Assembly: GCA_025934735.1 (NCBI GenBank)
Contig: JAICWP010000009.1
Span: 71,640 to 135,639 of the forward strand
DNA: 64,000 nt
Origin: Terriglobales bacterium
GTDB lineage: Bacteria; Acidobacteriota; Terriglobia; Terriglobales; Acidobacteriaceae
Reading direction: 5' to 3'
The position numbers and the translations under genes are program-made. The notes beneath the pieces were generated by a model. The model was given only the letters and a program-made list of their open reading frames with translations. It was not told where the DNA came from and did not search any database. How positions within the stretch are numbered: the first letter of the stretch is position 1; every line of letters starts with the position of its first letter. Positions 7,144 through 51,564 of this stretch are shown in pieces.

Positions 7144-9057
7144 ATGGCCAACCCCGGCGATTTCGCGTACACGGTCAAACAGCAGGCGGATATCGTCCGC
7201 ATCGTGGGCGATTATGTGAAGCTGAAGAAGGCCGGAGCCCAGAACTACTCCGGCATTTGCCCCTTCCACCAGGAAAAGACGCCCTCCTTCTCGGTCCACG
7301 CCACGCGCCAGTACTATCACTGTTTCGGCTGTGGGGTTTCCGGCGACGTGTTCAGCTTCGTGCAGAAGATCGAGAACATCACCTTCCCGGAAGCCGTCCG
7401 CGCGATAGCCCAGAAGGTGGGCATTGCTCTCCCCAAGATTTCCTACAACAGCCCGGCAGAAGCTGAGGAAGCGAGAGTCAGGGGCAAGCTGCTGGAAATG
7501 CAAGAGCGCGCGACCGATTTCTTTCGCGAGCAACTGCGCCGCCCGGAAGCGGCTCACGCCCGCGAATACCTGGCCGGCCGCGGCCTCGACCAGGAAATGA
7601 TTGCCCGCTTCCGCATCGGCTTTGCCCCGGAGACCGGGTTCCTTCTTCGCGACGCCCTGCGTGGGCAGTTCGATGAAGAGGCGATGAGGGCGAGCGGGCT
7701 GTTTTCGTGGAAGGAGAAAGAGCAGTCGACGGCTGACAGTCCACGGTCGGCTGCAAACTCGCGGAGTGCGCCAGAGAGACCGCAGACGCCCGTTGACAGC
7801 CGCCCGTCGACGCTTTACTCAAAGTTCCGCAACCGCATCATGTTTCCCATCGCCAATGAGTCGGGGCGGGTGATCGCCTTCACCGGACGCACCCTCTCCA
7901 CTGACGAAAAGGCTGGGCCCAAATACCTCAATTCGCCAGAAACGGGCATCTATTCTAAGTCGCGTGTTTTATTCAACTTAGACTTGGCCAAGGAGGCTAT
8001 TCGCAAGCTCGATTACGCCATTCTGGTGGAAGGGCAGATGGACTGTATTTCCGTGTTTGCCGCCGGCTTCCACAACGTGGTAGCCAGCTCCGGAACTGCC
8101 TTCACAGAGCTCCATGCCAAGCTGCTGGGCCGCTTCAGTAAGAACGTGGTGGTCAACTTCGATCCCGACACAGCCGGGGCCAATGCCACCGAGCGTACCT
8201 TGGGGCTGCTGGTGGCTGAGGAATTCCACATCAAGGTGCTGACCCTGGAACCCGGCTTCGATCCTGACCTGTTTATCCGGCGCAAGGGCAGGGAAGCCTA
8301 CGCTCTGGCGCTCAAGAACGCCCAAAACTACTTCGATTACCTCATTGAGCGCGCCCGCGCTTCCTTCCCGGTGCGCAGCCCGGAAGGCAAGGTGAAGGCG
8401 GTGAACTTTCTCCTGCCCCACGTGCAGCGGGTACCCAGCCGAATCGTGAGGGACGAACTGGCTCGAGAGATCGCCCAGAAACTGGGCATTGACTCCGCCG
8501 TGCTTAGCCAGGAACTGCGCCACGCGGCCACGCAACGATCGTCAGCCCAGCTCAAGGCCCCGGCAGAGGCCCAGGTGACGCAGGCGGAGCGCATCCTGAT
8601 ACGCGCCCTGGCCTCCGCCGGCCAAGTGCAGGGAGACGAAAGCCGCGTTTCCGCCCGCGACGGGGTGGATGAGGAATTCGAGCCGGCCCGCCAGGCGCAG
8701 TTCGCGCTCAGCAGCGAACGTCTCCATGAAGGCCTGGCTACCGAAGCATTGCTGGACGTGTTGCTGCAGGCTGACCTGGCCGAGACCGGCGCCGACCCCC
8801 TCTCCCTCGCTCTGCCTGAAGCCGACCAGCGCCGGCTGGCGGCCACCCTGATGCAGGAAGACGAAGAACTCACCCCTGAGCTCCTGGAGGGAGCCATAGA
8901 AGCCCTCCGTCGGCGACATTTGCAGCGCCGCCAGCGTCAAATCCAGGTACAGATCGCAGACGCCGAACGCCGGCAGGACAGCACGGTGCTGGGGCAGCTT
9001 TTACGCGAAAAGCTGGTACTGGACCGTACCTTGGCAGGCGTAGCGGCCAGGGAGTAG
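7144..9057 (+). CDS. dnaG: DNA primase DnaG
   Basis: Zinc-ribbon CPFHQEKTPSFSVH...YHCFGCGVSGDVFSF and a TOPRIM block (ILVEGQMDCISV...VVNFDPDTAG). Start is set at ATG 7144 (MANPGDF...). Confidence 0.95.
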   Translation: MANPGDFAYTVKQQADIVRIVGDYVKLKKAGAQNYSGICPFHQEKTPSFSVHATRQYYHCFGCGVSGDVFSFVQKIENITFPEAVRAIAQKVGIALPKISYNSPAEAEEARVRGKLLEMQERATDFFREQLRRPEAAHAREYLAGRGLDQEMIARFRIGFAPETGFLLRDALRGQFDEEAMRASGLFSWKEKEQSTADSPRSAANSRSAPERPQTPVDSRPSTLYSKFRNRIMFPIANESGRVIAFTGRTLSTDEKAGPKYLNSPETGIYSKSRVLFNLDLAKEAIRKLDYAILVEGQMDCISVFAAGFHNVVASSGTAFTELHAKLLGRFSKNVVVNFDPDTAGANATERTLGLLVAEEFHIKVLTLEPGFDPDLFIRRKGREAYALALKNAQNYFDYLIERARASFPVRSPEGKVKAVNFLLPHVQRVPSRIVRDELAREIAQKLGIDSAVLSQELRHAATQRSSAQLKAPAEAQVTQAERILIRALASAGQVQGDESRVSARDGVDEEFEPARQAQFALSSERLHEGLATEALLDVLLQADLAETGADPLSLALPEADQRRLAATLMQEDEELTPELLEGAIEALRRRHLQRRQRQIQVQIADAERRQDSTVLGQLLREKLVLDRTLAGVAARE

Positions 9058-15393: not shown

Positions 15394-16581
15394 CTAGCGG
15401 CGCGCAATAGCTGCCGACCAGGCCGCGGAAACCTTTTGGATGCGCTCGGTCGCCTCTTTCAGAGTCGCGTTGGAAGAGGCAAAGCTGAAGCGCACAAAGT
15501 CACGTCCAGCATCGCCAAAAGCGGCGCCAGAAATGGCGGCCACGCCCGCTTCTTCCAGCATGATGCGGCACAGTTCCTCGGCCGTTACGCCTGTGTCGGC
15601 AATATTCACCCAGGCATAAAATGCGCCCTCCGGCGGCAAGCAGCGGAAACCGGGAATGCGGTTCAGGTCGGCGATGAATTGCTGGTGGCGGCGCTCAAAT
15701 TCGCGCACCATGCGCGGGGTGGCGCCCTGGGCGTCGCGCAGGGCCTCAATGGCCGCCCACTGCGTAAATTCGGCCACACAGGTGTAGCTGTTCACGGCTA
15801 GCAGGTCGAGGGCGGTCACAAAGCGCTCAGGTGCCACCGTGTATCCCAGGCGCCAGCCGGTCATGGCAAAGCTCTTGGAGAAGCCGTCAATGATGAAGGT
15901 GCGCTCCGCCATGCCGGGGTAGCTGAGCATGGATTGGTAGGCGCCTCCAAAAATGATGCGGGCGTAAATTTCGTCCGAGAGCACGAGCAGGTCGTGCTTG
16001 ACCGCCAGTTCAGCCAGGGCGCGCTGGACTTCGTCCGTATAAACGGTCCCGGTGGGATTGTTCGGCGAACAGGTGATCAGAACCTTCGTGCGCGAGGTAA
16101 TCTTGCGCGCCACTTCTTCAGGATCGGGCTGGAGGCGATTGCGCTCGGCCAACTCATAAGGGACCGCCACGCCGCCGAAGCCGCGCGTAATGGAGGGATA
16201 TCCGGGAAAGCCAGGATCGGGATAGAGCACCTCGTCGCCGGGCTCAAGCAGCGCCATCAGCGCAAGAAACAGGGCAATCTTGCAGCCAGGAGCGAGGACG
16301 ATGTTCCCGGGTGGAACGCGCAGGTTGCGGGTGCGCGCCATGTAGGCGGCGATTTCCTGGCGCAACTCGGGCACACCCTGCACCGGGCAGTAACGGTCCT
16401 TGCCGGCATCGAGCGCATCTTTGGCCGCTTGCAGCACCTCGGCAGCAGGGTGGAAATCCGGCTCGCCCAGTTCCAGGTGAATGATAGAGCGTCCTTCGGC
16501 CTCCAGTTCCTTGGCGCGGGCGTAAACCGAGAGCGCGCCTTCGCCGCTCATCACCGCCAGCCGGGAAGCGAGTTGCCGCAC
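15394..16581 (-). CDS. Pyridoxal-phosphate-dependent aminotransferase (class I, aspartate aminotransferase-like)
   Basis: 395 aa. Blocks LGEPDF, SPNNPTG, and FSKSFAMTGWRLGY with the PLP-lysine motif. GTG start lies 2 nt after the upstream stop. Confidence 0.9.
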   Translation of the reverse strand: MRQLASRLAVMSGEGALSVYARAKELEAEGRSIIHLELGEPDFHPAAEVLQAAKDALDAGKDRYCPVQGVPELRQEIAAYMARTRNLRVPPGNIVLAPGCKIALFLALMALLEPGDEVLYPDPGFPGYPSITRGFGGVAVPYELAERNRLQPDPEEVARKITSRTKVLITCSPNNPTGTVYTDEVQRALAELAVKHDLLVLSDEIYARIIFGGAYQSMLSYPGMAERTFIIDGFSKSFAMTGWRLGYTVAPERFVTALDLLAVNSYTCVAEFTQWAAIEALRDAQGATPRMVREFERRHQQFIADLNRIPGFRCLPPEGAFYAWVNIADTGVTAEELCRIMLEEAGVAAISGAAFGDAGRDFVRFSFASSNATLKEATERIQKVSAAWSAAIARR

Positions 16582-16583
16582 GG

Positions 16584-17150
16584 TTATGCCTTCCTCGCGA
16601 CTGCCGCCGGTACCGGGGTGGTAGGAATGCGCAACGCATCCACGAAACGGGGAAAGAATACGAAGGCCGCGGCCGTGGCCGTTAATTCGATGATTTCCGG
16701 GTCGCTGAAACTGCGCTTCAGCTCCGCGTAGAACTCGTCGTCGAGTTCATAAGGCGAGCGGTAAAGCCGGTCAGCCGCGCGAAATCCCAGCTTTTCCTTT
16801 TCGTTATACGGACCTTTCTCGAAGTCCTGCAAGCCGGCCACTTGCGCCTCGCTGGCGCCCTTCTGCTTCGCCGAAGCAGTGTGGGCCGAGGTTCAATAAT
16901 CGCAATTCTGCAGAATGGCGACCCGGGTGGCAACCAACTCCTTGTAGCTGCCGGAGAGGGCGCCATCACCGAGCAGCGGCTTGAGAAACCCCGCAATCCC
17001 CATGGCCAGGGCGGGCGTGTGAGCAACCGTCTTGAACATATTGGGCACCGCGCCCCTCTGTTCCAGAAGGAGATCATAAAGCTTGCCGATATCCTCCGGA
17101 ACCTGGTTGCGCTCCAGCAGGGGAATACGCGGATGATCGTGGCCCTTCAT
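16584..17150 (-). CDS. AhpD-like / carboxymuconolactone decarboxylase-family protein with in-frame TGA (candidate selenocysteine, CxxU)
   Basis: Track ORFs 16893..17441 (from ATG 17150: MKGHDHPRIPLL...VATRVAILQNCDY) and 16584..16841 are in the same frame, separated only by TGA at 16893-16895. The read-through gives ...AILQNCDY-U-TSAHTASAKQKGASEAQVAGLQDFEKGPY..., which is the family CxxCxxxH motif with TGA at the second Cys. Confidence 0.7.
16858..16895 (-). promoter_or_regulatory. Candidate bacterial SECIS hairpin immediately 3' of the in-frame UGA
   Basis: mRNA reads UGA ACCUCGG CCC ACA CUGCUU CGGCG AAGCAG AA GGG. There is a 6-bp upper stem (plus-strand 16863-16868 / 16874-16879), a 5-nt apical loop with GG, and a 3-bp lower stem (16858-16860 / 16883-16885). 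The loop begins about 22 nt after the U of UGA. Confidence 0.5.
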
Positions 17151-20100
17151 CAGAATGCGTACCTCAACGAGAACTGTATCAGACGCGGTGTGCCGGTGGT
17201 ATTGGTGATCTGGCCGAAGTTGGCGGGGCTCTCCACGTCGGTGAAGGCCGGGCTGGCAAAGTTGGGATGATTGAAAAGGTTGAAGAAGTCGGCAGTGAAG
17301 CGCAGAGACTGCCGCTCGGTGAGGTGGAACATCTTGATGGCCGAGAAGTCGAAATTCTGCTGAAAGGGCCCGCGATAAATGTTGCGGCCGAGGTTGCCGA
17401 AATCGGTGCCGCAGAAGTTGGGGTTGTTCACGGGATCGCACTGCGCTGGATACAGCAGAGGCGCGGTGGTGAAGGCGGCGGGATTGAGGTAGCCGTTAAT
17501 GCGGTTAAAGATGTCACCGCTGCTCAAACCCGAGGACAAGGCGGCGCCGGGAGCCAGGCTGGCGCCCAGCAGCGGGGTGCTGCCCGCGCCCAAGAAGCCG
17601 GTGCCGGCGGCCGAATCAATGATGGAGAAGGGCGTGCCCGACTGGAACACAGTCACGCCGCTCACTTCCCAGCCCTTGAGCAGAGCGCCCTTGGCGCCGG
17701 TGGCGTTCTGGAAGACAGGCAGATCGTACACATAGCTGATGGCCAGGCGGTGAGGACGGTCAAAGTCGGAGAGGCCGCGCGAGGCGTTGATGTTGCTCTG
17801 GTCGTTGTAGGCGGTGTTGAACGCGGTGTTTCCGGTGGAGGTAGCGTCGGTGGAGCGGGAGAAGGTGTAAGCGGCCAGCAGGTAGCCGCGTCCCCAACGC
17901 CGGGTCAGATTGACCTGCAGAGCGTTGTAGTGGGAGTAGGCGTCATTAGCGAAGATCTGGTAACCGGAGTAGCCATTCAACCCGGGAGTGGGGGTGCGGG
18001 CAATGGCATTGTCGAGGGTGTTGGTTGTGATGGCGTGGGTTACGCCGCCGGTGTCGGTCACGAAGAATGGACTGCTGGGGCTTACCCGGACGGACTGAAT
18101 GCCATCGCGCGTTTCACGGAGGTGAATGGAGTGCGTGCCCACGTAGCCGACTTCCAGCACGAAGTTGTGGCCCAAGTCGCGCTGCAACGTCAGGTTCCAC
18201 TGCTGAGTGCTGGGCACAACAAAGCGCCGCGGGACTTCGAGGCCGAAGATGCCGACGGAGGGAACGCCGTTGCAGGAGGCATAGTCGGCGGCATGATCCG
18301 TGCCATTTGGAAATCCGGAGATCTTGGACAAGCAGGGAATGTAAGCCGGGCTCAGTTCGCCTGCCGGGGGGAGAGCGTTTGGGTTAGTCGCCAGCGTGCC
18401 AGAGAAGAAATTGGCCAGAGCGCCGGGAGCGGGCGCGCCGCCAAAGGCGATGGGTAACAGGGGCGCCTGGAAACTGAGCTGGTCAATGTTGCCCACGTCC
18501 TCCCGCACGTAGTAGATGCCGTAGCCGCCGCGCAGCACGGTCTTGTGCCGGCCCATGATGTCCCAGGCGAATCCGATGCGCGGGCCCAGCCCGGTAGAAA
18601 TCTGGTTGTTAAAGGTGGATGCCGAAGCGTTTCCGGAGAAGCCGGGCACATTGAGCTTGTTGACGCACCTGGGATACACGAACGGGTATTGGCCGCTCTG
18701 TGTTAGCGAGGATTGCAGGTTGCCGATATGGCAATCCCCGTCGGTGAAAGCGCCCATCAGTTCGGTGCGGAGGCCGAGGTTGAGGGTCAGGTCAGGACGC
18801 GCCTTCCAGTCGTCCTGGGCAAAGAAGCCGAAGTTGTTCTGGCGGTAGGCGTGGTTGAAAACGCCGCCGCCGCCGAAGCTGAAGTTGGGCTCGCCCAGCA
18901 GGAACTCCTGGAAGTCAGTCAGCCCGCCGTTGTTGACGAAAAACAACTGGCCATTAAACGTCTGCGGAAACTGCTTGTCCAGGTTGACGCGCGTCGCCTC
19001 GCCACCGAAGCGCCAGTTGTGGTTGCCATGGGTCCAGCTCAGAGTTTCTACGAAATTGTAGTTGTTCTGGTCCTGGAATTGGTCAGCCTGGGGGGTGGGA
19101 CCAAACTGGAAGCCGGAACTCAGCAGCGTGAACTTGTAAATGCTCTTGGTCAGGTTGTTAGTGGGGCGGTTGATGCCCACGTCGCTGACCGTGACCGGCG
19201 GCACGTTGATGGCGCTGTTGTTAATGTGTACCCAGCCAAAACGCAAGTCATTGACCATGGTGGGAGAGAAGAGATGGGTCTCGGCCACGGACATAAGGCG
19301 GTCGTCCACCGGAAGGTCGAAGGGGAAATTGAGGTCGGAGCCGCTGATGCTGCCGCCCAGGGAAGCCTGCAGGCCGCCCGCGCCGAAGGGCACCAGTTGC
19401 TCGGAGTTGGAGAAGAAGAAGCGGTAGGCGACCTTGTCCTTGCCGCCGCGGAACTCGCGGTCCCAGTTGGTGGTGAACTGGTCGTCGGTGAAGCGTCCGG
19501 GTTTGCTGAAGGCAAACGGACCGGTGTTCAGGTTGCCGGCGCTGTCCAACCCGGCTTGACCCGGCACACTGGGGAAAAGGAAGCCGCCGGGCGTATTGCC
19601 GAACTGATTACTTTTGAAATTGAGCACTTTGAGGGCGACAGGGTCAATCTGCACGCCGGTCTGGCCGGGGAAAAAGGTGTTGAGCAGCGACTGTGCGGAG
19701 CGGTCGGCGGGCATAACCGGCAGCAGAGTGCTGATGAACGTGCCGCCAGAAAGGCCACTGCGCTGGCGCGTGCCCTGATAATTAACGAAGAAGAAGCCAA
19801 ATTTGCCGTCTTTGCCGATGGGCCCGCCAAGGCTGCCGCCGAAGATGTTTTGCTTGATCACCGGGCGAGGCTGTCCGCTGCGCTTGAGGAAGAACTCGTT
19901 GGCATTGAGCACGTCATTGCGGAAAAACTCATAAACATCGCCGTGAAACTCGCGGGTGCCCGATTTCAGGATGGCATTAACGTTGCCGCCGCCATTGCGG
20001 CCCTGGCTGGCGTCGTAAAGCGAAGTCTGCACCTTGAATTCCTGCACCACGTCCGGGTTGGGCAAGGGCGTGTTGGTGAGTTCCGCCACGTTGTAGTCAG

Positions 20101-20704
20101 TGGCGGTGATGCCCTCAACCAGGTAATTGTTGTTGTCCTCGCGCTGGCCGTTGACGATGATGCGCACGTCACCGCGGCCCAGCTGCGCCGAGGCGTTGAG
20201 CTGGCTGGAGGCGCCGGCGGAGAGGCTCAACAGCTGCTGGAAGTTTTGTGTGGCCAGGGGCAGGGTGCGGATGGTGTTGGATTCGATGGCCTCGCCGGTG
20301 GTGGCTGTGGTGGTCTCCACGGTTTGCACTTCGGCCTGAACCTGGACCTCCTGCTTGACGGTCTGCGGCACCAGTTTGGCGGTCATGCGCGTGGTTTCGG
20401 TGACGCGCACGTCCACGGAGTTGACCGTGCCCTGGGCAAACCCGGGCGCGCTCACGGTGACGTCATAGCTTGCGACGGGCAGCAGCAGCGCGGTAAACGA
20501 GCCGCTGGCATCGGTTTTAAGCGTGCGCGCCACCTGGCCGGTGGCGTGGTTCACGATCTTCACCGTGGCGCCGGGCACGACCGCACCGCTGGGATCCAGC
20601 ACCTGCCCGGTCATGGCGCCGGTGGCGCCGCCCTGGGCCCATACCACGGCCGCCAACAAGAGCGGTAACAGTGCCAAACCAAGAATTCTGAGAACCGTCC
20701 GCAT
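17150..20704 (-). CDS. Giant TonB-dependent-receptor-like outer-membrane protein with N-terminal carboxypeptidase-regulatory-like domain
   Basis: 1184 aa. Signal peptide MRTVLRILGLALLPLLLAAVVWAQ, a CarboxypepD_reg block (GQVLDPSGAVVPGATVKIVNHATGQVARTLKTDASGSFTALLLPVASYDVTVSAPGF), beta-barrel repeats and terminal ...LRYAF. Confidence 0.85.
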   Translation of the reverse strand: MRTVLRILGLALLPLLLAAVVWAQGGATGAMTGQVLDPSGAVVPGATVKIVNHATGQVARTLKTDASGSFTALLLPVASYDVTVSAPGFAQGTVNSVDVRVTETTRMTAKLVPQTVKQEVQVQAEVQTVETTTATTGEAIESNTIRTLPLATQNFQQLLSLSAGASSQLNASAQLGRGDVRIIVNGQREDNNNYLVEGITATDYNVAELTNTPLPNPDVVQEFKVQTSLYDASQGRNGGGNVNAILKSGTREFHGDVYEFFRNDVLNANEFFLKRSGQPRPVIKQNIFGGSLGGPIGKDGKFGFFFVNYQGTRQRSGLSGGTFISTLLPVMPADRSAQSLLNTFFPGQTGVQIDPVALKVLNFKSNQFGNTPGGFLFPSVPGQAGLDSAGNLNTGPFAFSKPGRFTDDQFTTNWDREFRGGKDKVAYRFFFSNSEQLVPFGAGGLQASLGGSISGSDLNFPFDLPVDDRLMSVAETHLFSPTMVNDLRFGWVHINNSAINVPPVTVSDVGINRPTNNLTKSIYKFTLLSSGFQFGPTPQADQFQDQNNYNFVETLSWTHGNHNWRFGGEATRVNLDKQFPQTFNGQLFFVNNGGLTDFQEFLLGEPNFSFGGGGVFNHAYRQNNFGFFAQDDWKARPDLTLNLGLRTELMGAFTDGDCHIGNLQSSLTQSGQYPFVYPRCVNKLNVPGFSGNASASTFNNQISTGLGPRIGFAWDIMGRHKTVLRGGYGIYYVREDVGNIDQLSFQAPLLPIAFGGAPAPGALANFFSGTLATNPNALPPAGELSPAYIPCLSKISGFPNGTDHAADYASCNGVPSVGIFGLEVPRRFVVPSTQQWNLTLQRDLGHNFVLEVGYVGTHSIHLRETRDGIQSVRVSPSSPFFVTDTGGVTHAITTNTLDNAIARTPTPGLNGYSGYQIFANDAYSHYNALQVNLTRRWGRGYLLAAYTFSRSTDATSTGNTAFNTAYNDQSNINASRGLSDFDRPHRLAISYVYDLPVFQNATGAKGALLKGWEVSGVTVFQSGTPFSIIDSAAGTGFLGAGSTPLLGASLAPGAALSSGLSSGDIFNRINGYLNPAAFTTAPLLYPAQCDPVNNPNFCGTDFGNLGRNIYRGPFQQNFDFSAIKMFHLTERQSLRFTADFFNLFNHPNFASPAFTDVESPANFGQITNTTGTPRLIQFSLRYAF

Positions 20705-45216: not shown

Positions 45217-45493
45217 GGCGGACGGCATTCTAATACGGCGGGTTTGTCTCGCGCCGCTGCCCACGGTTGCGTGCGATTGGGTGGGCATAACAATTGTCAT
45301 CTACAAAAACCTGTATTGCTCCTATGTAAATTGGTGGTGTTGGTGGGCCTTAGCTGTCTAAGTTATTGGTTTTTGTCGGAGTTGGCTGCTAAACCCTTAA
45401 CCAGATTTGGGCTCTGAATTGCACAGTAGCTGACAAATCTCTCAGGCCCATTTGTTGGACGTCTATGTCTACAAAAAAATTCAGGAGCACCAG

Positions 45494-48400
45494 ATGCGCA
45501 TCGCTAAGCTGATCTTCCTATTCGCCTTCGCAGCCTTGCTCAGCGTCTACGTATTTGCCCAGACGGGAACCTCGTCCCTACGCGGAACGGTAACTGATCC
45601 TAAGGGAGCAGTGATCCCCGGGGCCACTGTGACCATATCCAACCCGCAGACGGGCTACACCCGGACTGTGAAGTCGAACTCCCAGGGTGTGTACCAGTTC
45701 CTGGAAGTGCCGCCGGCCACCTATAAGCTGACGTCCGACGCCAGCGGGTTTGCCACCCTGACGCAAGCCAACGTGATCCTGATGGTCAACACGCCGGCGA
45801 TGTTGGATCTAGGCATGCAGGTGGCGGGAGCTGCCACGACGGTGGAGGTGACAGGCGCCGCGCCGCTGGTCAATACGCAGGACGCCAGCCTGGGGCATGC
45901 GTTCAACGCCCTGCAAATTCAGGATCTGCCGTTTGAAGGGCGCGATCCAGCAGGCATTCTGAGCCTGCAGGCGGGCGTAGCGTACACCGGCAACAATGAC
46001 CAGGCGATGCCGCAGAGCCAGGACAGCCGCAGCGGTTCAGTCGCTGGCGCGCGCAGTGACCAGGCCAACATCACCATCGATGGTGTGGACAACAATGATC
46101 CCATCCTGGGCCAAGCCTTTCAGGGGGCCCTTCGCGCCACACTGGATTCGTTGCAGGAATTTCGCGTGACCACCACCGGCGGCAACGCCGATGAAGGGCG
46201 TTCCTCTGGAGCACAGGTGGTTCTGGTCACCAAGAGCGGCACCAACGATTTTCACGGCACTTTGTACGAATACCATCGCCCGACTTTCACCACGGCCAAC
46301 GACTGGTTCGTGAAGAACGCGCAACTCGGTGCGGGCGAGCCGAATATTCCCGGCAAGCTGATCCGCAACACCTTCGGAGGCGCCATTGGGGGACCGATAA
46401 AGAAAGATCGGCTGTTCTTCTTTGCCACCTATGAAGGACAACGCTTGCGGGAGAACACGTCTATCGTTCGCACCGTGCCCAGCGCCGACCTGCGCAATGG
46501 CTTCATCAGTTACATCACGGACACGGGCACAGTGCAGCGGCTATCACCAGCTGACATTGCCAGCATGGATCCGAACTGCAGCACCACTTGCCCACTCGGG
46601 CCAGGTGCGAATCCGGCTGTCATGCAGATTTTCAAGCAGTACCCGCTGCCCAATACCAATATCGTGGGCGACGGATTCAACTTCCGCGGCTTCCAGTTCA
46701 CGGCTGGCGCTCCTGCCAAACGGGACACGTATATTGTGAAGCTGGACTACAACCTAACGCAAAACGGCAACCACCGGCTGTTTGTGCGCGGCAACTTGCA
46801 GAACGACAGTGTTGCCGGCATAGGCAACGATGGGCCCGAGTTCCCCGGCGATCCCCCGAACGTCACCAACAAGGGCAATAACAAGGGCATCTCGGTCGGC
46901 TACACCGCTATCCTTCGGGATAACCTCATCAACAATTTCCGTTATGGCTTCATACGGGAAGGCATTGACAACGTGGGCTTGCAGAACTCTGCATTCGTCA
47001 ACTTCCGCGGTCTGAATGACCTCAACGGCCAAACCCCCACGACCCGGGTCACTGTCCCAATGCACAACCTGGTGGACGATGTCACCTGGACCAAAGGCAA
47101 GCACACCTTCCAGTTCGGCGGTAATATCCGCATCATCAATGACGAGCGACTGGGCAATACCGACTCGTTTAACTTTGGCCAGACCAACGTTTCCTGGTTA
47201 CAGGCCGCGGGCATTGCCGGGTCGGGCGGAACCCTTGACCCGGGGAATTTCGGCTTCCCAGCTGTTTCCAGCGACTTCGGCCAGTCCTACGACTTGCCGA
47301 TGGCGGCTTTGGCAGGTCTGGTTCCTTTCGTCGAGGGCGAGTACAACCGTAACAAGACCGCTGCCCTTCTGCCTCAAGGCGCCTTTGTGCCGCGGCATTT
47401 CAAGGCGCACGAGGCGGAATGGTACGCGCAGGACACGTTGCGGGTAACCCCAAGTCTGACTCTGACCTTTGGTGCTCGCTATACCCTGCTGCAGCCACCT
47501 TACGAGGTGAACGGTAACCAGGTTGCCCCAACCATTGACCTCAGCCAGTTCTACACGCAGCGTGGGCAGTTGGCGCAGCAGGGTCTGCCCTACAATGTCT
47601 GCCCTCCCGATCCGAACAAGTGCACTAACCTGGTTGGATTGGGGCTTTCCGGGCCGGCCAACGGCAAGCCGCCTCTCTGGAACTGGGACTATGGAAACAT
47701 CGCGCCCCGCTTCTCTTTCGCTTGGGCTCCGTCGTATGACAGCGGCATCCTCAAGCACATCACTGGGGGCAGCGCTGGCAAATTTTCCGTGCGCGGCGGT
47801 TACGGCATCTACTACGACCATTTCGGCGAAGGCATCGTCAACAGCTTCGACCGCAATGGCTCGTTCGGACTGACTACCCTGATTGACAACCCCGCTGGCA
47901 CGCAGACGCCCGATACCAGCCCGCGATTCAGCCAGCCCAGCGTTACCACTATTCCGACCATGTCGGCCATCGGCAATATTCTGCCGCCCCCTCCCAGCGG
48001 GCCATTCCCCAGTATTCCGCCTGCGGACCTTGGTGGTGGAGGTTTTGCTATTACCTGGGGCCTGGATGGCAAAATGCATACTCCGTACTCCCACGTGGTG
48101 AATTTCAGCGTTACCCGAGAACTGCCAAAGAACTTCGTGGTGGAGGCGTCCTATGTTGGCCGCTTCGCCCACCACCTGCTGCAGGAAGAGGACATGTCCC
48201 AACCGGTGGATCTGGTGGATCCCAAGTCGCACATGGACTACTTCACAGCGGCCACGCTCTTGGCGAAGGCGGCAAACGCCGGCGTGCCGATTCAGCAAAT
48301 CAAGAACATTCCCTTCTGGCAGAATTTCTTCCCCAGCGCTGCCGGAGCTGCCGCTACCCAGCTTGGGTTTGGGTTTGGACCCGGAAACGGCTGCGCACCG

Positions 48401-49447
48401 GGCGACGGCAGCGTGACCGGCAACGTTACCGCGACGCAGGCTGTCTACGACATGTATTCCTGCTTCACGGGTAACGAGACCAGCGCGCTGTACGGAATTG
48501 ACGTGCCTGGCGGCTTCGGTATTACTACCAGTCCGGGCGGTTGTTTCCCGGCTTGCGCAACCATTAACGGAAAGCAAACCAATGGCTACGATTTCTACAA
48601 CCCGCAGTGGTCGTCACTGTATGCCTGGCGCAGCATTGGGAACAGCGTCTACAACGGGCTGCAGCTCAGCTTGCGCAAGCGGATGAGCAACGGGCTGAAC
48701 TTCGACCTGAACTACACCTACTCCAAGTCCATAGATGTCGGATCGAATGCGGAGCGTATTAATGAGTTCGAAGGCTTCGGTGTGGGTTCCAGCCAGATCA
48801 TCAATGCCTGGTCGCCGAAGCAGTTGCGTGCCGTTTCCGATTTCGACAACACCCACCAGATCAACGCCAACTGGGTCTATGAGCTTCCGGTCGGCCGCGG
48901 CAAGCACTTTGGCAGCGGCATGGGAGGCGTGCTCAACGCCCTGGTAGGCGGCTGGTCCATTTCGGGCCTGTGGCGCTGGTCCAGCGGCTTCCCATTCAGT
49001 GTGGGGCCGGGTCTGGGCTTCTGGGGTACGGACTGGCAGCTCACTTCCAACGTGGTGCAGAACGGCCCTATGCCGAAAACTGGTAGCTTCAATGTCGCCG
49101 CTACTCCCGGTGGTTCGGTGCTGCCTAACGTCTTTCAGGATCCAGCCGCGGCGATTAAAGATTTCCGGCTGGCTTTTCCCGGAGAGTCAGGACAGCGTAA
49201 TAACCTGCGTGGTCCGGGCACATTCGACATTGATGCCAGCCTGGGCAAGACCTGGAAGGTTACCGAAGGCAAGGACTTCAGCTTCCGCTGGGAAACCTTC
49301 AACATCACCAACACCCCGCGGTTTGACGTAGGCCAGATGCAGTTCAATGGCAACAACACGCTGGCAACTGCCGCGACTTTCGGCACATTCACCAACACTC
49401 TGAACAAGCCGCGGCTGATGGAGTTTGCCCTGCGGTTCACATTCTAG
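45494..49447 (+). CDS. Giant TonB-dependent-receptor-like outer-membrane protein with carboxypeptidase-regulatory-like domain (second copy)
   Basis: Start set at ATG 45494 (MRIAKLIFLFAFAALLSVYVFAQ). Contains GTVTDPKGAVIPGATVTISNPQTGYTRTVKSNSQGVYQFLEVPPATYKLTSDASGF and terminal ...ALRFTF. Same architecture as 17150..20704. Confidence 0.85.
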   Translation: MRIAKLIFLFAFAALLSVYVFAQTGTSSLRGTVTDPKGAVIPGATVTISNPQTGYTRTVKSNSQGVYQFLEVPPATYKLTSDASGFATLTQANVILMVNTPAMLDLGMQVAGAATTVEVTGAAPLVNTQDASLGHAFNALQIQDLPFEGRDPAGILSLQAGVAYTGNNDQAMPQSQDSRSGSVAGARSDQANITIDGVDNNDPILGQAFQGALRATLDSLQEFRVTTTGGNADEGRSSGAQVVLVTKSGTNDFHGTLYEYHRPTFTTANDWFVKNAQLGAGEPNIPGKLIRNTFGGAIGGPIKKDRLFFFATYEGQRLRENTSIVRTVPSADLRNGFISYITDTGTVQRLSPADIASMDPNCSTTCPLGPGANPAVMQIFKQYPLPNTNIVGDGFNFRGFQFTAGAPAKRDTYIVKLDYNLTQNGNHRLFVRGNLQNDSVAGIGNDGPEFPGDPPNVTNKGNNKGISVGYTAILRDNLINNFRYGFIREGIDNVGLQNSAFVNFRGLNDLNGQTPTTRVTVPMHNLVDDVTWTKGKHTFQFGGNIRIINDERLGNTDSFNFGQTNVSWLQAAGIAGSGGTLDPGNFGFPAVSSDFGQSYDLPMAALAGLVPFVEGEYNRNKTAALLPQGAFVPRHFKAHEAEWYAQDTLRVTPSLTLTFGARYTLLQPPYEVNGNQVAPTIDLSQFYTQRGQLAQQGLPYNVCPPDPNKCTNLVGLGLSGPANGKPPLWNWDYGNIAPRFSFAWAPSYDSGILKHITGGSAGKFSVRGGYGIYYDHFGEGIVNSFDRNGSFGLTTLIDNPAGTQTPDTSPRFSQPSVTTIPTMSAIGNILPPPPSGPFPSIPPADLGGGGFAITWGLDGKMHTPYSHVVNFSVTRELPKNFVVEASYVGRFAHHLLQEEDMSQPVDLVDPKSHMDYFTAATLLAKAANAGVPIQQIKNIPFWQNFFPSAAGAAATQLGFGFGPGNGCAPGDGSVTGNVTATQAVYDMYSCFTGNETSALYGIDVPGGFGITTSPGGCFPACATINGKQTNGYDFYNPQWSSLYAWRSIGNSVYNGLQLSLRKRMSNGLNFDLNYTYSKSIDVGSNAERINEFEGFGVGSSQIINAWSPKQLRAVSDFDNTHQINANWVYELPVGRGKHFGSGMGGVLNALVGGWSISGLWRWSSGFPFSVGPGLGFWGTDWQLTSNVVQNGPMPKTGSFNVAATPGGSVLPNVFQDPAAAIKDFRLAFPGESGQRNNLRGPGTFDIDASLGKTWKVTEGKDFSFRWETFNITNTPRFDVGQMQFNGNNTLATAATFGTFTNTLNKPRLMEFALRFTF

Positions 49448-50580: not shown

Positions 50581-51003
50581 ATGCAACGTAAGGCAAGCGC
50601 GGAGTGGAAGGGCAGTTTGAAGGAAGGCTCAGGAGCGGTTTCTTCCAGCAGCGGAGTGTTTTCCAAAACGCCATTCTCATTTGGTACGCGGTTCGGCGAC
50701 CAGCCGGGCACCAACCCGGAAGAGCTGATCGCGGCGGCACACGCGGGCTGCTTCTCCATGGCCCTTTCGGCGCAGTTGGGGAACGCCGGGCTGACCCCGG
50801 ACAGCATTAAAACCAATGCAACCTTGACCCTGGAAAAGCTGGATTCCGGCTGGACGATTACCGCCGTTCACCTGGACGTGACCGGCAAGGTACCAAAAGC
50901 CGACAAGGCGGCATTCGAGAAAGCGGCGGACGCGGCCAAGGCAGGCTGCCCGGTTTCCAAAGTGCTGAACGCCAAAATTACAATGAGCGCGAAACTGGAG
51001 TAG
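50581..51003 (+). CDS. osmC: OsmC-family peroxiredoxin
   Basis: AEWKGSLKEGSG...GTNPEELIAAAHAGCFSMAL...AKAGCPVSKVL. Both conserved Cys are present. Confidence 0.9.
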   Translation: MQRKASAEWKGSLKEGSGAVSSSSGVFSKTPFSFGTRFGDQPGTNPEELIAAAHAGCFSMALSAQLGNAGLTPDSIKTNATLTLEKLDSGWTITAVHLDVTGKVPKADKAAFEKAADAAKAGCPVSKVLNAKITMSAKLE

Positions 51004-51162: not shown

Positions 51163-51564
51163 ATGGCAGAAAAACTTACCAAAACCGACGCCGAGTGGCG
51201 CCAGCAGCTTTCCCCCGACGAGTACCACGTTACTCGTCAGAAGGGCACGGAACCGGCTTTCAGTGGACGCTACTGGAACTCCAAGGAGCATGGCACCTAC
51301 AAGTGCGTGTGCTGCGGGGAGCCGCTGTTCAGCTCGGAAACTAAGTACGAGTCCGGCACCGGCTGGCCCAGCTTCTGGCAGCCTTTAGAAGAAGACCGGG
51401 TGGAAGCGCACCTCGATCGCAGCCATGGCATGGAGCGGACCGAAGCACTGTGCGCGCGTTGTGGGGCCCATCTGGGGCATGTGTTTGAAGATGGCCCTGC
51501 ACCTACCGGGCTGCGCTACTGCATGAACTCCGCCGCGCTCAAACTAGAATCCGACAAGAAATAA
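51163..51564 (+). CDS. msrB: Peptide-methionine (R)-S-oxide reductase MsrB
   Basis: CVCCGEPLF...GTGWPSFW...[16 protein letters not shown]...RYCMNS. It has the zinc CxxC pairs, and the catalytic residue is Cys, not Sec. Confidence 0.95.

Follow-up and report, generated by a model that had tools for sequence, protein, structure and literature searches.

The minus strand of the window, the 64-kb stretch of DNA analysed here, carries a gene whose in-frame UGA (16895..16893) is very probably read as selenocysteine (Sec), which would make it one intact AhpD-like gene of 188 residues. The predicted product is an AhpD-like thiol/selenol oxidoreductase of the carboxymuconolactone decarboxylase (CMD) superfamily, of the 'peroxidase-related' type. 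The gene and its UGA are positioned as follows:

16584..17150, minus strand: proposed selenoprotein gene, complete, 188 codons from ATG 17150 to TAA 16586..16584, AhpD/CMD family, 'peroxidase-related', with U at residue 86
16893..16895, minus strand: in-frame UGA, proposed selenocysteine codon (residue 86), from the sequence and its comparative conservation

The sequence-only reading had described two minus-strand ORFs, 16893..17441 and 16584..16841, that lie in one frame and are separated solely by the TGA at 16895..16893. The sequence, the translation and the ORF list were rechecked and agree with this description to the base. The translation around the stop is ...LQNCDY*TSAH..., or, over a longer span, ...VATRVAILQNCDY*TSAHTASAKQKG.... 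The ATG of the CMD gene at 17150 shares one base with the TGA stop of the upstream gene (TGATG; window 17150-17152). Since this upstream gene ends with TGA, the window uses the standard genetic code, and an alternative code was rejected as an explanation for the interrupted frame. Crude screens of the window for a second gene with an in-frame TGA, based on GC3 and free-space filters, returned the CMD gene as the only real-looking candidate.

As anticipated, gene callers divide the CMD gene into two fragments of 85 aa each, and the N-terminal 85-residue fragment is a called gene in 51 blocks of a public assembly collection. The split arises because the in-frame 'stop' almost certainly encodes selenocysteine. 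The reality of the TGA was checked in six Logan assemblies, each from a different sequencing run (SRR32132910, SRR14712111, SRR14712112, SRR34444533, SRR32132918 and SRR32132919), all of which match the window gene at every base, the TGA included; sequencing error is thereby excluded. In each of the six, the callers output two 85-aa proteins without a Pfam match.

Fold and putative active site

The joined product matches the Pfam CMD family (PF02627) over residues 47-105, across the stop, with an E value of 3.3e-16 and 59.5 bits against a cutoff of 23, and it exceeds the cutoff of TIGR00778, the AhpD core domain (40.3 against 27.8 bits). The alignment to TIGR01926 ('peroxidase-related enzyme') is full length, covering profile positions 2-176 of 178, with a score of 60.5 bits that is below the cutoff of 81.8; the product is, therefore, related to this curated family and outside its boundary. 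It also falls under the cutoff of every curated NCBIfam (seleno)protein model. The best NCBIfam match is NF053654 ('YciW-related (seleno)protein'; 68.6 against a cutoff of 310), in which residues 8-177 align to positions 3-173 of 179, and the scores for NF041238 ('AhpD_rel_CFYUT') and NF041047 (GSU3128 family) are 42.6 against 175 and 21.4 against 110, respectively. Judged by these scores, the product is not a member of the equivalog families NF053654 or NF041238.

The fold was assessed from a model of P0010, a homologue of the C-x-Y-C form with 67% identity to the window protein. The AlphaFold model of P0010 is a single all-helical domain with a mean pLDDT of 92.6, and superposes on the 'peroxidase-related proteins' 2prr, 2pfx, 2oyo and 3c1l, on 6k40 and on Bmp8 with TM values of 0.78-0.83 over 174-180 columns. 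The values are 0.81-0.83 for 2prr, 2pfx and 6k40, and reach 0.83 for 2prr/2pfx (174-180 of the 188 residues). The model is much closer to the 'peroxidase-related' group 2prr/2pfx/3c1l and to Deinococcus radiodurans AhpD (6k40), at TM 0.81-0.83, than to Mycobacterium tuberculosis AhpD, for which the structural likeness is weak (TM about 0.5). Because the homologue superposes as a single domain, both halves of the split gene belong to one fold. The initial claim of one continuous AhpD/CMD fold is thus upheld by the span of PF02627 across the stop and by the homologue model.

The residues proposed to form the active site surround the UGA:

16881..16940, minus strand: active-site segment with a putative proton relay, Glu71 (16940..16938), Cys83 (16904..16902), Tyr85 (16898..16896), Sec86 and His90 (16883..16881)

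In a PDB sequence search, the query C-D-Y-C-T-S-A-H aligns with C-x-Y-C-x-x-A-H in 2pfx, 3c1l and 2prr (three printed alignments), and the Cys homologues P0010 and P0080 align Cys with the UGA. The Cys-homologue alignment and the solved structures thus agree with the earlier placement of the TGA at the second Cys of a CxxCxxxH motif. Glu71, Tyr85 and His90 are invariant in 24 aligned sequences, SxYA forms included, and E71, C83, Y85, U86 and H90 are spaced as in the catalytic relay of AhpD, made up of Glu, Cys-x-x-Cys and His. The relay consists of Glu118/Cys130/His132/Cys133/His137 in M. tuberculosis AhpD and of Glu36/Cys48/Tyr50/Cys51/His55 in PA0269 (PMC3141380). The spacing of Glu, Cys-x-(His/Tyr)-Cys and His in these two proteins is identical to that of the window product and their all-helical AhpD fold is the same, whereas the position of their second Cys is taken here by Sec. 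The active site of the window product, Cys83-Asp-Tyr-Sec86-x-x-x-His90 together with Glu71, would reproduce the proton relay of AhpD, except that Sec stands in for the second Cys.

The second Cys of AhpD is the attacking nucleophile, which would fit its being the residue upgraded to Sec. To our knowledge, Sec occupies the second position in all described CxxU AhpD-like selenoproteins. We infer that Sec86 would be the attacking nucleophile and that Cys83 would be the resolving residue, giving a selenenylsulfide that would then be re-reduced by a cellular reductant. Elsewhere in the chain, residue 125 (about 16776-16778) is Ala in the window ('GFRAADRL') and Cys in most SxxA forms ('GFRCAERL'), and some U forms (L010-L012 and L014) contain both the Sec motif and a 'GFRCAERL'-type Cys. 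The alignment suggests that a Cys at this position may be a relocated or additional thiol.

The gene-caller model implies true termination at the UGA, with an 85-residue N-terminal protein and an 85-residue C-terminal protein that initiates at an internal in-frame GTG (16841) and together form a split AhpD-like protein; the hairpin that follows the UGA would then have another role, such as pausing or mRNA stability. The GTG is indeed present at 16841. However, this arrangement would leave untranslated the 17 codons from the TGA to the GTG (TSAHTASAKQKGASEAQ), which include the invariant His90 and whose encoded residues are conserved in all homologues. In addition, homologues of the Cys and SxxA types consist of one chain, and the stop is located exactly at the catalytic Cys position. 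We consider a split protein very improbable, and insertion of Sec into a single chain remains the preferred reading.

Conservation of the UGA codon

A scan with one genome per species yielded 80 loci (L001-L080), almost all from metagenome-assembled genomes (MAGs) of Terriglobales/Acidobacteriota. The codon aligned with the window TGA is TGA in 18 of the 80 (L001-L014, L016, L017, L025 and L028), at 59-91% aa identity, and the first Cys is kept in all 18 (C-x-Y-U). It is TGC or TGT in nine loci (C-x-Y-C) and another codon in the remaining 53, nearly all of which lack both cysteines (S-x-Y-A or F-x-Y-G) and two of which keep only the first. Metagenome contigs were scanned with a DNA pattern on TGYGANTAYTGA and a few flanking bases that left the 18 hairpin nucleotides free. 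The pattern matched 69 contigs, and in 68 of these the match is an orthologue that has TGA at this codon and retains the first Cys. The recurrence of TGA at the same codon in 18/80 genome loci and 68/69 metagenome matches substantiates the initial argument that it is not a random nonsense mutation.

The sequence-only reading had counted close orthologues with a residue other than Cys or Sec at this position as evidence against selenocysteine. Many syntenic orthologues do have Ala there, and to that extent the objection holds in form; nearly all of these, however, have lost the CxxC motif and are more distant (below about 67% identity), whereas the closer relatives, at 59-91% identity, have TGA. 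A search of 5.8 billion protein clusters retrieved no full-length relative above 70% identity, in a collection that may simply exclude sequences with U.

No other stop occurs in the window gene or in the eight relatives closest to it. Pairwise differences at the three codon positions of these nine genes are 0.077/0.033/0.331 for the part that precedes the TGA and 0.086/0.089/0.412 for the part that follows it. This pattern and the absence of other stops show that the 3' half is translated in frame and is under purifying selection.

These data also bear on the reading in which the gene is a pseudogene with a nonsense mutation, or an ordinary CxxC AhpD-like gene with a sequencing or assembly error. 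In its favor, the callers report two fragments, and a few metagenome copies have extra defects: an additional in-frame stop upstream of the UGA (GWYK*LV, in L089), a frameshift after the hairpin (L146), and a CMD frame that runs straight into amidohydrolase sequence (L148). These defects are probably assembly errors or decayed copies. Such a reading is opposed by the same-codon TGA in 18 species-level genomes and 68 metagenome contigs, by purifying selection on the downstream frame in the closest relatives, by the identity of the TGA in the six independent assemblies, and by a covarying hairpin that is confined to the TGA forms. Its probability is negligible, and we regard it as already effectively refuted.

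Four of the MAGs (L004, L028, L017 and L032) are labelled Chlamydiota, Patescibacteria, Dormibacterota and Eremiobacterota, respectively, yet their gene is of the Acidobacteriota type. The full Terriglobales synteny of L004, at 83-92% aa identity, suggests a mis-binned contig, while L017 and L028, which lack synteny, may represent a true occurrence outside Acidobacteriota.

The downstream hairpin and the decoding of UGA

Bacterial SECIS elements have been recognised in selenoproteome surveys by a small G-containing apical loop closely downstream of the UGA (PMC1088965). A structure of this kind follows the UGA of the CMD gene:

16863..16879, minus strand: SECIS-like hairpin CUGCUUC-GGC-GAAGCAG, 7 bp with a G-containing triloop, beginning 13 nt past the UGA and spanning codons 91-96 (T-A-S-A-K-Q)

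The loop of the Escherichia coli fdhF SECIS has a G-U dinucleotide, which the GGC loop of this hairpin lacks. The sequence-only reading had proposed a SECIS check downstream of the UGA, and RNAalifold predicts the 7-bp helix from the 19 TGA genes of the window and the 18 genome loci, with two pairs altered on both sides and none broken. All seven pairs form in each of these 19 genes and in each of the 68 metagenome orthologues, among which five sequence variants occur, so that the hairpin is present in 87/87 TGA genes. Compensatory double changes, from C-G to U-A or from U-A to C-G, are found at four of the seven pairs (1, 4, 5 and 7). Several of them couple a nonsynonymous with a synonymous change: an Ala-to-Val replacement goes with AAG becoming AAA, Ser-to-Leu with GCG becoming GCA, and Lys-to-Arg with GCU becoming GCC. 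By contrast, the 62 non-TGA homologues form at most 5/7 pairs at the hairpin position, even where the peptide is near-identical (e.g., ALSAKQKG). Third-position entropy in 70 distinct TGA genes is 0.00-0.11 bits at non-covarying codons of the hairpin, compared with about 1-1.9 bits elsewhere. The single-sequence fold of the window hairpin region is unexceptional (z = -1.34), and the case for the hairpin thus rests on the comparative evidence. The single-sequence fold also extends the lower stem, but the aligned genes do not conserve this extension, and it is not claimed.

We infer that SelB carrying Sec-tRNA(Sec) would bind this 7-bp hairpin with its GGC loop, 13 nt downstream, as the ribosome nears the UGA, and would deliver Sec at the UGA in place of termination. 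Within the 64-kb window, a part of the source genome, ARAGORN and Rfam found no tRNA or Rfam families, and tblastn with E. coli SelA, SelB and SelD found no selA, selB or selD. The same queries against about 1.7 Mb of fetched loci gave weak GTPase-domain matches only, all in non-TGA loci. One Acidobacteriota MAG (L013) encodes a tRNA-Sec (8881-8978, minus strand) about 240 nt downstream of its Sec-form orthologue (8076-8642, plus strand); this tRNA is the sole piece of Sec machinery in any fetched sequence. It is detected by ARAGORN and by Rfam RF01852 (75.7 bits; gathering score, 47). Its acceptor and T stems follow the 8/5 arrangement, its D stem has 6 bp and a tetraloop, and its variable arm is long; it also has G73, a UCA anticodon and an encoded CCA.

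The UGA could alternatively be recoded to a residue other than Sec, namely Cys through a SelB-dependent tRNA-Cys(UCA) of the selC* type, Ser through an allo-tRNA, or another amino acid through an opal suppressor. Mukai et al. have described tRNA-Sec-like allo-tRNAs with 8/4 or 9/3 structures in Acidobacteria, and selC* tRNA-Cys(UCA) opal suppressors with U73 in other phyla (PMC5389517). These precedents, and the fact that Sec machinery was not seen in the 64-kb window of the source genome, speak for such recoding. On the other hand, the only tRNA adjacent to an orthologue, that of L013, has G73 and the 8/5 arrangement and is, therefore, a canonical bacterial tRNA-Sec, neither a selC* (U73) nor an allo-tRNA (8/4, 9/3), and selC* has been reported in phyla other than Acidobacteria (PMC5389517). 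Insertion of Cys would offer no evident gain over the TGC codon used by nine relatives, and Ser at residue 86 would inactivate the motif. Recoding to a residue other than Sec is, in our estimate, improbable, and selenocysteine remains the favored assignment for residue 86; Acidobacteria were already listed as users of selenoproteins in 2006 (PMC1794560).

Genomic neighbourhood, active-site states and related selenoproteins

The CMD gene is the second member of a conserved four-gene cluster, whose other members were assigned from ORFs and Pfam matches:

17150..20704, minus strand: outer-membrane beta-barrel protein (OMP) of 1184 aa (CarboxypepD_reg + OMP_b-brl_4), upstream
15394..16581, minus strand: class I/II PLP aminotransferase of 395 aa, downstream, starting 2 nt past the CMD stop codon
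13979..15334, minus strand: Amidohydro_2-family protein whose N-terminus resembles a signal peptide, last of the cluster

The order OMP-CMD-aminotransferase-amidohydrolase is kept in most of the 80 loci, irrespective of whether the CMD protein is a U, C or SxxA form. The start codon of the aminotransferase is GTG. The tight packing of the cluster, with its TGATG overlap and 2-nt gap, suggests translational coupling, and the CMD gene probably shares a transcript with the three other genes of the cluster. An NCBIfam search found no specific function for the neighboring aminotransferase or amidohydrolase. Elsewhere in the window, an OsmC-family gene (50581-51003, plus strand) adjoins an MsrB gene with a SelR domain (51163-51564, plus strand), both apparently ordinary Cys forms, and a second CarboxypepD_reg/OMP_b-brl_4 outer-membrane protein, of 1331 aa, is encoded at 45452-49447 (plus strand).

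AhpD proper is an adaptor that recycles AhpC, whereas the CMD gene has no ahpC among its neighbors (OMP barrel, aminotransferase, amidohydrolase and SDR). That thiols in a CMD/AhpD-like fold can be used for chemistry beyond peroxide reduction is illustrated by the tetrabromopyrrole debrominase Bmp8 (6ohi/6ohj), a Cys enzyme from a marine natural-product cluster. Bmp8 is about 20% identical to the window product and shares its fold (TM 0.81), and its CxxC-type motif aligns (E 1.3e-8).

The suggestion that AhpD-like proteins are among the families with Sec/Cys variants is borne out by the literature, in which CxxU forms are documented (PMC1088965, PMC2398784, PMC13188914). The Sargasso Sea survey reported 27 sequences of CxxU AhpD-like proteins in COG2128 (PMC1088965). 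In the GOS data, AhpD-like proteins rank with the most abundant families of selenoproteins, at 299 'AhpD-like 1' and 70 'AhpD-like 2' sequences (PMC2398784). A 2026 review lists AhpD-like, CMD-like and AhpD-related (NF041238) families and a distant AhpD homologue (NF041047), all CxxU (PMC13188914). The AhpD-like selenoproteins of the surveys (COG2128/TIGR01926) share with the window product the superfamily fold, a chain of about 180-190 aa and a CxxU motif in which Sec comes second. They likewise have many Cys homologues and a hairpin with a small G-containing apical loop downstream of the UGA. They are, however, mostly marine or from Deltaproteobacteria or Clostridia, whereas the gene described here belongs to a soil subfamily of Terriglobia (Acidobacteriota) and, unlike them, is fixed in the OMP-CMD-aminotransferase-amidohydrolase cluster. 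NF053654 and NF041238 are also of the AhpD type with Sec/Cys variants, and the C-F-Y-U-T motif of NF041238 resembles the C-D-Y-U-T of the window product; the proteins of NF041238, however, are about 357 aa long rather than 188. The gene is best seen as representing a Terriglobia subfamily that is new and unannotated, within a kind of selenoprotein already known.

The syntenic CMD orthologues at the 80 loci display three active-site states: CxYU (18), CxYC (9), and motif-less SxYA, FxYG and similar forms (53). In a crude neighbor-joining tree, the U forms are paraphyletic, with a CxxC clade nested among them, and three U forms (L010-L012) cluster with FxxG forms in the SxxA part of the tree. 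The paraphyly of the U forms suggests that Sec is ancestral, in a tree that is too crude to rely on. The motif-less forms would fit an origin, repeated or early, from such an ancestral Sec form. We tentatively propose, as a scenario that is possible but less likely than not, that Sec was ancestral, was replaced by Cys once and was lost with the redox motif in most lineages, with Glu71, Tyr85 and His90 retained throughout, the role of the protein in the cluster being either redox-independent or an uncharacterised selenium-dependent step. If this were true, the core role of the CMD protein in the cluster would be independent of thiol/selenol chemistry; alternatively, the cluster would define an uncharacterised selenium-dependent step in the processing of an imported substrate.

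The concepts involved are unchanged by these results, as CxxU AhpD-like selenoproteins and the interchange of Sec and Cys have been well established since 2005. The CMD gene is mis-annotated as two hypothetical proteins of 85 aa in every assembly examined, and its recognition as a selenoprotein would correct the annotation of a widespread gene of soil Acidobacteriota (Terriglobales). It would also extend the family of AhpD-like selenoproteins by a lineage from soil and by a genomic context that is fixed, and the clean SECIS-like hairpin, with its four covarying pairs, would be usable to find further acidobacterial selenoproteins.
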